Shown: one piece after another, positions 56,681 to 59,746 of the stretch | Position numbering within the stretch: position 1 is the stretch's first letter | Layout: each line of letters starts with the position of its first letter | Translations under genes and position numbers: made by a program | From: a virus | IMG/VR virus record: IMGVR_UViG_3300003323_000115 | Location: 2,270 to 66,269 of that record | Direction: 5' to 3' (one strand) | DNA length: 64,000 nucleotides | Notes under the pieces: generated by a model | The model's database searches: none | Told to the model about the DNA's origin: nothing | Seen by the model: only the letters and a program-made list of their open reading frames with translations

Positions 56681-57184
56681 TTACTCAAAAAGTTTGCGAT
56701 CAGCCCGAATCTGGGTGCTCAAGGCTTCAATGGCAGCGTCACGCTGTCCAAGAGTGAGCCGGAGCTCTTGTACCAATCCTCGGCCTTCTTCGAGACTTCG
56801 GTCGAGTCGGGCTGCATGAGCTGCAAGATCTCGGCACTGAGCGGGGCCAGCTTCGGCTTGACGTTGATATACGTTGGCTCGCTCTTGAGAGCCCCGCAGC
56901 CGCTTATCGTACTCAGCACGCACAGCAGCAAGAGCCACTTCGTGTAGCCTCGTTTGCTCGGCAATCTTGGACTGGAGACGGCTTGTTTCGGCTGCATGTT
57001 CTTGCTCCTTGGTTCGAATCAGGGTTTGCTGTCTGTTGATCTCTCGACTGTATTCAAGTTTGTCTTGTGCCCATTTGGCTTGCCACTGAGCATCCTTGTA
57101 GTTGGAACCAAGAAAGAAAATAGCCCCGATCATCAGGGCTACACCTCCAACCAGTCCAACCCATTTCAGGGCCGTTGTGTACAT
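56681..57184 (-). CDS. Rz: Inner-membrane spanin (Rz-like)
   Basis: N-terminal TM segment then coiled coil; follows the endolysin; start MYTT at 57184. Confidence 0.8.
56719..56997 (-). CDS. Rz1: Outer-membrane lipoprotein spanin (Rz1-like), fully embedded in Rz
   Basis: Own AAGGAG SD; signal peptide [13 protein letters not shown] lipobox; Pro-rich mature region. Confidence 0.8.
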   Translation of the reverse strand: MQPKQAVSSPRLPSKRGYTKWLLLLCVLSTISGCGALKSEPTYINVKPKLAPLSAEILQLMQPDSTEVSKKAEDWYKSSGSLLDSVTLPLKP

Positions 57185-57186
57185 GG

Positions 57187-57783
57187 TCACTCCTTGCACC
57201 GGCTCAGCGGTACGTTGCCAATTCGGTGGTCCAGCCACCCAACGGTGAATTCCGGGAGGTTCGTCAGCGAGAGGTAGTAGGCACCTTGCTGGGCATCGAT
57301 CGCTTTGATGACCAGTTCGCAAGCCTTCACTTTCCCACGAACCCTGACCAGCCCTTGATAGGCCGCCACCGTGCCGGGACCAACTTTACCATCGACTTGA
57401 ATTGTAGGGAAATCCTTCCCACCCCGATTCAGACGATTGAGGCTGGTCTGGAGCCAAACAGAAGGGCGACCAGGGCCAGTGTTCACACCGGCATCGATCA
57501 GCTTGTGAGCCACAGCAGGCGACAGCACAGCGAATGCATCGAATCCCGGCTTCTTGGCGTACTGGTTGGTGTAGATCTCAACCGCTACTTCCTGCGGCAT
57601 TTCCTTCATGGGACCGGTGTAGCCATTGGCTACAGCAACAGTCTTGGTGACCCCATGGTTGGTTTCACCACCCGGATCCTTCGGGTTGTTGACATAGCCA
57701 CCCTCCACACCCAGTACCGCAATGATGATGGTGGCAATAGCTCCGGAGACACCACCTACTACTTTGGTCTTAGTTGTCGCCAT
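57187..57783 (-). CDS. GH108 N-acetylmuramidase endolysin with probable SAR anchor (N4 gp61-like)
   Basis: EGGYVNNPKDPGGETNHGVT directly after the Gly/Ala-rich hydrophobic segment VVGGVSGAIATIIIAVLGV; C-terminal peptidoglycan-binding region. Confidence 0.9.
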   Translation of the reverse strand: MATTKTKVVGGVSGAIATIIIAVLGVEGGYVNNPKDPGGETNHGVTKTVAVANGYTGPMKEMPQEVAVEIYTNQYAKKPGFDAFAVLSPAVAHKLIDAGVNTGPGRPSVWLQTSLNRLNRGGKDFPTIQVDGKVGPGTVAAYQGLVRVRGKVKACELVIKAIDAQQGAYYLSLTNLPEFTVGWLDHRIGNVPLSRCKE

Positions 57784-58320: not shown

Positions 58321-58347
58321 GATTCATTCCTGTGTTTGGGCGGGGCC

Positions 58348-58383
58348 AAAAGAAAGCCCCGCTAGAGTTGAGCCTAGCGGGGC
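58348..58383 (-). terminator. Rho-independent terminator between the tail and lysis modules
   Basis: GCCCCGCTAG-GCTCAACT-CTAGCGGGGC followed by TTTCTTT. Confidence 0.85.
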
Positions 58384-58445
58384 GAACCATTTGCTGGCAG
58401 GGCGATTCTACCGCCCTGTGACGAATTGCAGCTATATGACTATTT

Positions 58446-58820
58446 TCAACTCTCTTCTGCGAAACCGTAGTGACTTGGCCAGGGTTGTAGTTTGTGCACA
58501 CCACGCAGCGAATGATCACAATCGTCAAGAAAAATGATTTCACCAGGCTGTGCGCCGTTGCATCCGACGAACGAATGACAGAGGGTCTTCTGAGGATACT
58601 GCTTTCCCTCGTAATCGTGCGCTGGGATGATGACATGCACGCTGGGGCTCAGGATTGGCGCATCGTAGTCGCCGTTGAAGTGCCAGTTGCGGTCAGGATC
58701 ACCGCCCTTGACGGCCACGCTGTGGGCGCACTCACAGCCGTGGCACCAGAACGTGATGCCCTCCTGTCCCGTGACTGAGTTGACCCAGCGCCGGATGCCG
58801 AATTGACCGTGTGCGCTCAT
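58446..58820 (-). CDS. DUF6527-like Cys/His protein
   Basis: FWCHGC..H...WHFNGD...PILSPSV...CHSFV...GEIIFLDDCDH.L.G; CAGGAG SD. Confidence 0.65.
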   Translation of the reverse strand: MSAHGQFGIRRWVNSVTGQEGITFWCHGCECAHSVAVKGGDPDRNWHFNGDYDAPILSPSVHVIIPAHDYEGKQYPQKTLCHSFVGCNGAQPGEIIFLDDCDHSLRGVHKLQPWPSHYGFAEES

Positions 58821-58837
58821 GCTGATCTTCTCCTGTT

Positions 58838-59311
58838 TCAGTTGTACAGCTCGACTTCAAGAAAGCTGTTTGGCACAGCCTTCAGCACCAGGGAATTGGC
58901 AACGTTCCAGTTGATGCGCACAGCCACGTAGTCGCCAGGAACAACGGCAAACTCAGACGTGAACGCCTGATAGTTACCGCCGCCGAAGCCTCCGCTCGCT
59001 TGCCATGCTTGCGTCTCGCCTTGTGCTGTGCCACCCGTCCCGTCGTCGGCCACGCCAGTCATGATCTTGAACGAAAAACCACCAGGGTTATTGTTGTTCG
59101 TGACTGTGAGGGAAGCGCGTGCCTTGGCCTTGGTGTAGCCAGCAGGCACCACGATCTGCCGACCATTCGACACACTCATGTCTCCAGCAGACCAGACGAT
59201 TACATTTGGACCAGAGGCGGCAGAACCAATATTGATGTCTGCCGACAGCTTGGCGCGAAGGAAACGCGATGGCAAAACGATGCCTGTGCGTGATGAGTTC
59301 GTTGATGCCAT
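58838..59311 (-). CDS. Stand-alone C1q/TNF-like jelly-roll protein, putative receptor-binding tip
   Basis: Beta-rich pattern IVVPAG...VVPGDYVAVRI...SFLEVEL; AAGGA SD. Confidence 0.55.
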   Translation of the reverse strand: MASTNSSRTGIVLPSRFLRAKLSADINIGSAASGPNVIVWSAGDMSVSNGRQIVVPAGYTKAKARASLTVTNNNNPGGFSFKIMTGVADDGTGGTAQGETQAWQASGGFGGGNYQAFTSEFAVVPGDYVAVRINWNVANSLVLKAVPNSFLEVELYN

Positions 59312-59320
59312 GGTGGTCCT

Positions 59321-59746
59321 TTAGAGCGATTGCCCTTGGAAATAGGTAAGTGCGGCGCCTCCGTTGATGTCTGTTGCGGTTCCTGTGAAGCAGCGCACGT
59401 CGTAGACATCGGTTCCAGAAGCTATGTCTTGCGCAGCCACGCCAGTTGCATTTGTCGATACAGGTTGATCACCTCGTGCAAATTCGACGCCATTTTTAAA
59501 AATGGAAATAACGATGCCGTTGGTGATTTGAGTGTTGACACTCACCGAGGCGTTCATGTGGATAAGACCGGCTGGCGGCGTCCATGCGCTTGATGCAAAG
59601 TCACCTCGTAGGTCGTAGCGCTCCGTGCCAAAACTCACAGGTAGGAAAGAGCCCGTTGAAAGGCTCTGTGTAGAACCATTCTTATGTGCAGAGAATGCCG
59701 ACACTCTGTTAGGAATTCCGGTTCTCGCAGGATTCGTCGTTGCCAT
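59321..59746 (-). CDS. Stand-alone gC1q-like protein, putative receptor-binding tip
   Basis: AFSA...Q...VSF..E.YD...F...WTPPAG...ASV...ISIFKNG matches the gC1q pattern. Confidence 0.65.
   Translation of the reverse strand: MATTNPARTGIPNRVSAFSAHKNGSTQSLSTGSFLPVSFGTERYDLRGDFASSAWTPPAGLIHMNASVSVNTQITNGIVISIFKNGVEFARGDQPVSTNATGVAAQDIASGTDVYDVRCFTGTATDINGGAALTYFQGQSL

Follow-up and report, generated by a model that had tools for sequence, protein, structure and literature searches.

The last gene of a receptor-binding/fiber transcription unit in the window (the whole 64,000-nucleotide stretch of phage DNA that was analyzed) encoded a divergent member of the DUF6527 family, and the phage clade to which its product belonged was a distant branch of the BubE family, undescribed in the literature found. 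The explanation that fitted the data best, and one that we still hold as tentative, was that of a late-expressed accessory Ser-His (iso)peptidase acting against a ubiquitin-like protein (Ubl), probably in counter-defense. Its Ubl-directed peptidase part was favored because of conserved chemistry and predicted docking, and its accessory counter-defense part because of a mobile, patchy, and late-expressed gene together with Acb1 neighbors in relatives. The proposed mechanism would be as follows: (i) a compact all-beta protein would be held by a predicted zinc site, likely of C3-His type, formed by three cysteines (C26, C29, and C81) together with either H33 or H103; (ii) S60 would act as the nucleophile and H82 as the general base on neighboring antiparallel strands, with D100 possibly joining them to complete a triad; (iii) a beta-grasp Ubl would be bound, with its C-terminal tail on strand 60–66 and its C-terminus at S60/H82; (iv) the peptide or isopeptide bond linking the Ubl to another protein would be cut; and (v) the protein, produced late from the fiber-operon transcript of a mobile accessory gene, would most likely reverse host ubiquitination-like tagging (Bub-type, perhaps others) in vivo during virion production, and it would be no dedicated partner of the phage's own fibers.

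The 124-aa ORF was a real gene, having Pfam and PHROG matches and homologues with up to 74% identity, and its G+C content was like that of the window (0.571 vs 0.546). All the motifs that the preliminary description had reported were present in the translation, namely C26-x2-C29-x3-H33, L57-S58-P59-S60-V61, C81-H82-S83-F84, and C101-x-H103. The gene was located 3′ of the genes for the 489-aa fiber protein and two small proteins of 141 and 157 aa, with gaps of 2, 9, and 17 nt, and the terminator scan gave no terminator-like sites between these four genes, in agreement with the co-transcription proposed earlier. The gene was also, as described, the last one before a terminator: the first terminator, rated strong, was found 63 nt past the stop codon and was composed of a hairpin (11-bp stem with 8 G-C pairs, 6-nt loop) followed by TTTCTTTT, with the T-run tail given as TTTCTTTTGG. 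The receptor-binding/fiber transcription unit was thus closed by this terminator before the lysis genes began. The two small genes, labeled C1q-like in the preliminary description, had no match to Pfam, PHROG, or NCBIfam; no NCBIfam model was found for the window protein and the neighbors examined, and the fiber-to-DUF6527 region gave no megablast match to phage records. A second, shorter hairpin was present between the DUF6527 stop codon and the terminator (Table 1).

Table 1. Coordinates of the DUF6527 gene, its signals, nearby features of the window, and features of loci carrying relatives
Feature	Position	Strand	Basis
CDS, 124 aa, phage-clade DUF6527/BubE-like protein	58446..58820	-	ORF list, Pfam, PHROG, conservation
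Shine-Dalgarno AGGAGA, 8 nt 5′ of ATG	58829..58834	-	sequence reading
Intrinsic terminator (hairpin 58383..58356)	58346..58383	-	terminator scan and sequence
Second hairpin, 7 bp, G+C-rich, CAGGGCG ... CGCCCTG	58397-58417	-	
Small gene of the fiber unit	58838-59311	-	
Small gene of the fiber unit	59321-59746	-	
Rz-like gene	56681-57322	-	
92-aa ORF with lipobox-like ...ISGC, out of frame within the Rz-like gene	56719-56997	-	
Homologue and Acb1 (PF23474) between terminase and portal genes, L008	4398-4988		
Homologue and Acb1 (PF23474) between terminase and portal genes, L136	6383-6901		
Sequestin sponge gene, L136	2649-2945		
Homologue in tail-tip module, L137	6001-6390		

The DUF6527 identity proposed earlier was borne out by HMM search: the window protein matched PF20137 (DUF6527, carrying the name BubE in a newer Pfam release) at 27.3 bits against a gathering score of 23.6, with 27.7 bits in the six-frame search, and phrog_3362 was matched with an E value of 7e-22. 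The window protein was a marginal and divergent member of the family because the genuine BubE proteins of recovered Bub operons scored 62 to 80 bits on PF20137; the prophage-type copies from the same genomes scored 26 to 37 bits. A profile built from 40 homologues recovered 4,720 representative clusters (E <= 0.001) among 1.84 billion proteins, and their members were nearly all stand-alone proteins of 100 to 150 aa. By tblastn, the window protein identified homologues in 49 phage records, and a query from the commoner subfamily identified them in 289, the matches spanning jumbo, Mu-like, 9NA-like, and Ackermannviridae phages. Two phage subfamilies were distinguished: CHSFVG-CNGAQPG-EIIFL, containing the window protein, and the commoner CHSFV-TDG-RIQFL. 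The search for fused or longer forms yielded only N-terminal extensions of coiled-coil or spanin-like type, which were uninformative, and a single tandem duplication, which was degenerate: the extended forms included a 329-aa protein (P0312) in which a membrane helix and a coiled coil, Rz-like in character, ran directly into the DUF6527 domain, and the duplication was a 312-aa protein (P0092) whose second copy lacked the CxxC, P-S, and CH motifs. No paper describing phage DUF6527/PF20137 proteins was found, and the mentions of DUF6527 that were found came from two Corbett-lab preprints.

Across 132 diverse homologues with a mean column identity of only ~22%, eight residues were invariant (C26, C29, W46, S60, C81, H82, G93, and D100, each in 132/132), and two were near-invariant (H33 in 130 and H103 in 131). 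C31, C87, and C101 were variable, and the phage clade had three invariant cysteines, C26, C29, and C81.

BubE, the DUF6527 protein of Bub ('6E') operons, is a serine protease whose Ser-His dyad is S92/H102 and whose C4 zinc site is predicted at C57/C59/C61/C99, as described by Ye, Gong, Chambers, and Corbett for Type I/II Bub operons such as that of Citrobacter sp. RHBSTW-00271; BubE cleaves BubA-GFP very slowly (activity extremely weak in vitro) and removes BubA-target conjugates in cells, its fold is reported to have no PDB relative, and protection against phage has so far been found for none of the Bub operons (bioRxiv 10.1101/2024.11.21.623953). These data matched the role given earlier to DUF6527, that of a Ubl-cleaving Ser-His peptidase of Bub operons. 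The preliminary description had, however, merged two systems: DUF6527 does belong to Bub operons, but the tagging of a phage tail protein is the work of Bil, which uses a JAB peptidase. Two genuine Bub operons were recovered as references: L047 from Paraburkholderia (Multi_ubiq / DUF6791+ThiF / BubE) and L048 from Deinococcus (Multi_ubiq+E2 / JAB+ThiF / BubE).

The sequence comparison of the phage clade with BubE gave the same pairing of the N-terminal halves in the MAFFT, hhalign, and HMM alignments: G28-C29 corresponded to the G-C of CxCxC, W46 to W54, and P59-S60 to BubE P67-S68, so that S60 was paired with the BubE catalytic serine (S92 in Citrobacter). The hhalign match of phage clade and BubE was confined to the N-terminal half at a probability of 9%, and both hhalign and the BubE-only HMM left the C-terminal half unaligned because of a variable insert and a cysteine at His-1 rather than His-3; the equivalence of H82 and H102 thus rests on spacing and motif. 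The Ser-to-His spacing was 11 residues in the shortest phage members and 10 to 11 in BubE; the motif following the histidine, HSFVTDGRIQFL in phage members and HYVIxxNRVIEA in BubE, could be matched gap-free; and the strand limits of the AlphaFold2 (AF2) models of the window protein and BubE corresponded. These three points support H82, with H33 and H103 as the alternative histidines, as the putative counterpart of the BubE catalytic histidine. The S60/H82 dyad put forward earlier accordingly stood for its serine, which aligned with that of BubE, and for the invariance and spacing of its histidine, whose equivalence to H102 is putative.

The BubE-only HMM was nearly blind to the phage clade (<=13 bits). 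The AF2 models of the window protein and BubE shared all-beta cores of equal strand order, while the best BFVD matches of the BubE model (A0A8E7FZU2 and A0A7S5UXZ9) were weak in the list of the window model (probabilities 0.23 and 0.82) and no phage-clade proteins appeared in the BFVD match list of the BubE model. The blindness of the HMM and the weak Foldseek link argued for an old sister clade; the gene, which the preliminary description had taken as a possible captured deconjugase, was no recent capture but part of this old and very large phage clade. Apart from this clade, A0A8E7FZU2 was a viral 89-aa protein that was 53% identical to the Type II BubE core (TM 0.92, rmsd 1.1 Å) and lacked the helical extension, indicating that some viruses carry recently captured BubE proper.

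Taken feature by feature, the window protein resembled BubE in (i) its passing of the PF20137 cut-off; (ii) a compact all-beta core in the AF2 models, with no PDB relative; (iii) the order of zinc knuckle, Trp, and P-S serine motif; (iv) a beta-hairpin after an invariant histidine that, as the putative counterpart of H102, comes 10 to 11 residues past the serine in minimal members; and (v) a serine strand at which the C-terminal tail of BubA is predicted to dock. It differed from BubE in (i) its identity of 16 to 18% to the two BubE proteins aligned; (ii) its predicted zinc site, where CxxC takes the place of CxCxC and the middle cysteine is missing, the later cysteine is at His-1 and not at His-3, and three cysteines are invariant compared to four in BubE; (iii) the invariant or near-invariant H33, D100, and H103 added in the phage clade; (iv) an insert, variable in the phage clade, that separates the Ser strand from the His strand; (v) the absence of the hydrophobic N-/C-terminal extension, the window protein being 124 aa with no helix in its model and an acidic tail end, unlike the BubE model with its long C-terminal helices; and (vi) its gene context, having no E1, E2, or Ubl genes nearby but fiber and lysis genes as neighbors. 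Several of these points count against the Ubl-peptidase reading: judged by sequence, the phage clade is far from BubE, it does not keep the C4 zinc site, and the clade-specific H33, D100, and H103 could signal a different active site or substrate.

The AF2 model of the window protein was all-beta with a pLDDT of 92.8, and its strands 57–65 and 78–85 were compatible with a register placing S60 opposite H82, from which we infer that the two residues are adjacent. The PDB fold search with this model returned nothing meaningful (Foldseek best E 0.49; VIA-align wide best Z 3.0), and the PDB sequence profile searches for the window protein or a BubE-family structure found none. In the complex prediction, the window protein (alignment supplied, zinc added) was paired with the last beta-grasp domain and tail (residues 176–258) of BubA from the genuine Type II Bub operon L047 of an unrelated host. 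The prediction supported binding: the complex scores, which stand for model confidence and not for a measurement, were 0.81, 0.80, and 0.82, compared to 0.02 for the best of three controls. The score mark was reached by 58/80 solved complexes and 2/110 mismatched pairs, counts that calibrate this docking only roughly because a user-supplied alignment and a zinc ion were included. At least 91% of contacts were shared between the runs, and the partner pLDDT was at least 85. In the complex model, Ubl tail residues 252–256 ran antiparallel to enzyme residues 61–65 within a stretch where tail 252–258 lay against 59–66, and the presence of residues 59–60 and 257–258 in the interface would place the Ubl C-terminus at S60; residues 62 and 80 both contacted the Ubl tail, as expected if S60 faces H82, and the strand carrying H33 (residues 31–36) lined the opposite side of the groove. 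Since the PDB held no BubE-family structure, the docking score was not a recall of a solved complex. The predicted complex thereby shows likeness to the BubE-BubA binding mode, with a Ubl taken from another host.

The record was a complete 75.9-kb phage with terminal repeats, and its portal had ~65% identity to the portals of N4-like phages of Erwinia, Achromobacter, and Pseudomonas. Past the terminator came, in this order, a gene for a 113-aa protein (phrog_5211), genes for a holin-like protein (DUF7940) and an endolysin (GH108/PG_binding_3), Rz/Rz1, and portal; the DUF6527 gene was thus located upstream of the lysis cassette, parted from it by the terminator and one gene, and was not embedded between endolysin and spanin or holin genes. 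The 92-aa ORF inside the Rz-like gene (Table 1) was the usual embedded Rz1 o-spanin arrangement. The complete phage genome gave no match to ThiF or Multi_ubiq, contained no E1 or Ubl gene, and lacked an Acb1 gene; the window had no Pfam match to a JAB domain. Among the 49 homologue-carrying phage records there was no N4-like phage, although 477 records shared the portal. In Ea9-2, the equivalent slot contained two other genes, one hypothetical and one for a hydrolase; in inbricus, it was empty. The absence from the listed N4-like phages and the variability of the slot marked the DUF6527 gene as lineage-specific cargo.

The neighborhood survey was applied to both subfamilies, and the commonest neighbor of the clade was an endolysin gene, directly upstream, within lysis cassettes: (i) in the sample of the window's subfamily, a peptidoglycan hydrolase gene occupied position -1 in 13/28 non-redundant loci (Phage_lysozyme 7, GH19 4, Glucosaminidase 1, and CHAP 1); and (ii) in an independent sample of the other subfamily, ~25/70 loci had a peptidoglycan hydrolase gene upstream, from at least 10 families, and the start codon overlapped the upstream stop codon in 47/70. 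The +1 gene was repeatedly an Rz-like spanin or DUF2514 gene, and annotated lysis-cassette examples were Haddon, Medea1, phi3LM21, RHph_TM3_3_3, and Aeromonas ST4. A second recurrent site was the terminase/portal/MuF junction (RcapMu, EBPR siphovirus 4, 9NA, St162, L008, and L136), and further members occurred among the clustered head genes of jumbo phages, in accessory cassettes of Ackermannviridae, and in early regions. The relatives with 51 to 74% identity to the window protein occupied five different genomic contexts: beside an Acb1 anti-CBASS gene in L008 (74%) and, in the reverse order, in L136 (68%), where a Sequestin sponge gene was located 3 kb off; in an early region in L139 (63%); directly before a muramidase gene in L140 (58%); behind a gene for 691 aa, with a spanin gene close by, in L009 (56%); and within a siphovirus tail-tip module in L137 (51%). 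No recurrent fiber-like family was found among the clustered neighbors, and the family showed no linkage to tail-fiber genes; the tail-tip context of L137 was met once.

The main rival explanation, which we consider rather unlikely, though with a neighborhood signal too strong to be set aside, is that of a lysis accessory factor that would act, as infection ends, together with endolysin and spanin; such a factor might be an envelope amide/isopeptide peptidase, directed at a peptidoglycan cross-link or at Lpp-peptidoglycan after holin opening, or it might process a lysis regulator. The frequency of the -1 hydrolase genes, for which chance expectation was a few percent, the stop/start overlaps and spanin genes, the muramidase neighbor of L140, and the position of the window gene two genes upstream of holin and endolysin all agree with such a factor, and the lysis cassette, not defense genes, was the strongest neighborhood signal, which speaks against counter-defense. 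Against a lysis factor stand the window protein itself, with no signal peptide or membrane segment and with a cysteine-zinc site typical of cytoplasmic proteins; the strong terminator between the window gene and the lysis genes; the many members located elsewhere (terminase-portal junctions, jumbo head clusters, Ackermannviridae cassettes, and early regions); and the predicted Ubl binding at the S60 strand, which a lysis role would not foresee. Moreover, the edges of lysis cassettes are common sites of accessory genes.

The accessory counter-defense role drew on the terminase-portal insert of L008 and L136, which looks like a small anti-defense island. Against it, the Acb1 adjacency was limited to these two phages among all fetched loci, and they were related to each other. 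The occurrence of prophage-type copies together with genuine Bub operons was also compared: both were present in 3/13 genomes vs ~23–28/300 in the family of one of these genomes, an excess that was not significant given lineage, the large search under-counting low-scoring phage-type matches. A Bub operon or BubE-type gene together with a prophage-type DUF6527 gene was found in G002 (Paraburkholderia tagetis), G003 (Deinococcus marmoris), and G006, and these three provide natural pairs of prophage enzyme and host Ubl.

Three further explanations were weighed against the Ubl-directed counter-defense peptidase. The processing of a phage or host beta-grasp protein outside defense, for instance in tail-tip assembly, seems improbable: it would accord with the predicted Ubl binding and with the tail-tip location in L137, but that context was met once only, the small neighbors in L137 were unlike beta-grasp proteins, the window phage had no Multi_ubiq-type Ubl gene, and N4-like phages generally lack the DUF6527 gene. 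A precedent is the tail-tip role that Iyer, Burroughs, and Aravind reportedly proposed in 2006 for lambda gpK (a JAB peptidase) and gpI (ubiquitin-like). In L137, the proteins encoded on either side of the homologue were Phage_BR0599 and Phage-tail_3 (J-like), and the next small ORF coded for 79 aa with a membrane helix and ended in ...PAPGGKK. Equally improbable would be a non-catalytic zinc protein that binds, and perhaps blocks, a partner; small phage proteins often work through binding alone, and the extremely weak activity of BubE in vitro could be read in the same way, but S60, H82, and D100 were kept in every homologue despite their diversity, which points to chemistry rather than to a surface. 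A zinc-binding chaperone or maturation protease for the fiber and the two small upstream proteins is very improbable, since the tight, co-oriented spacing with their genes and the last place in the unit are set against homologues (including those with 56–74% identity) not located beside homologous fiber genes, neighbors that were endolysin, spanin, terminase, portal, or Acb1 genes with no recurring fiber family, and a fiber-operon position that is a variable slot in N4-like phages.

Compared to the JAB/JAMM deconjugases (BilC of Bil and Cap3 of type II CBASS), the window protein would share the cutting of a Ubl C-terminal conjugate, here in opposition to conjugation-based immunity, but it has an unrelated fold and chemistry, these being metalloproteases and host-encoded regulators. 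With Acb1, found beside the two closest homologues, it shares the nature of an accessory and patchy phage gene; Acb1, however, is a 2H phosphodiesterase acting on cyclic nucleotides, and phage DUF6527 proteins have no known experimental anti-defense activity.

That the phage clade is the first phage deconjugase family directed against ubiquitination-like immunity (Bub, and possibly Bil or, in type II CBASS, the Cap2 step) is a doubtful proposition as a whole. If it were true, the abundance of the clade, with thousands of phage clusters usually expressed with lysis genes, would imply that Ubl tagging of late phage proteins is a common and under-detected defense and that Bub is truly antiviral, and this could account for no Bub operon having yet been seen to protect E. 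coli. BubE was characterized only in 2024, and its authors found no phage blocked by Bub (bioRxiv 10.1101/2024.11.21.623953). A phage sister clade with the putative catalytic Ser and His and a predicted grip on the BubA tail thus offers a concrete handle on the role of Bub. The clade is also among the commonest unexplained genes in Gram-negative phage lysis cassettes, a puzzle of its own.

The survey further corrects a widespread mis-annotation. GenBank homologues were often labeled 'ammonia monooxygenase', a name for which the data gathered gave no support, and the 'putative ammonia monooxygenase' proteins of Erwinia phage Huxley (KX397368 gp106), Pseudomonas phage Medea1 (MW862109 gp87), and Sinorhizobium phage phi3LM21 (MF614628 p52) were genuinely homologous to the window protein and belonged to the DUF6527/BubE family. 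The DUF6527 gene of St162, RSF1, and Caitlin was present as an unannotated ORF.
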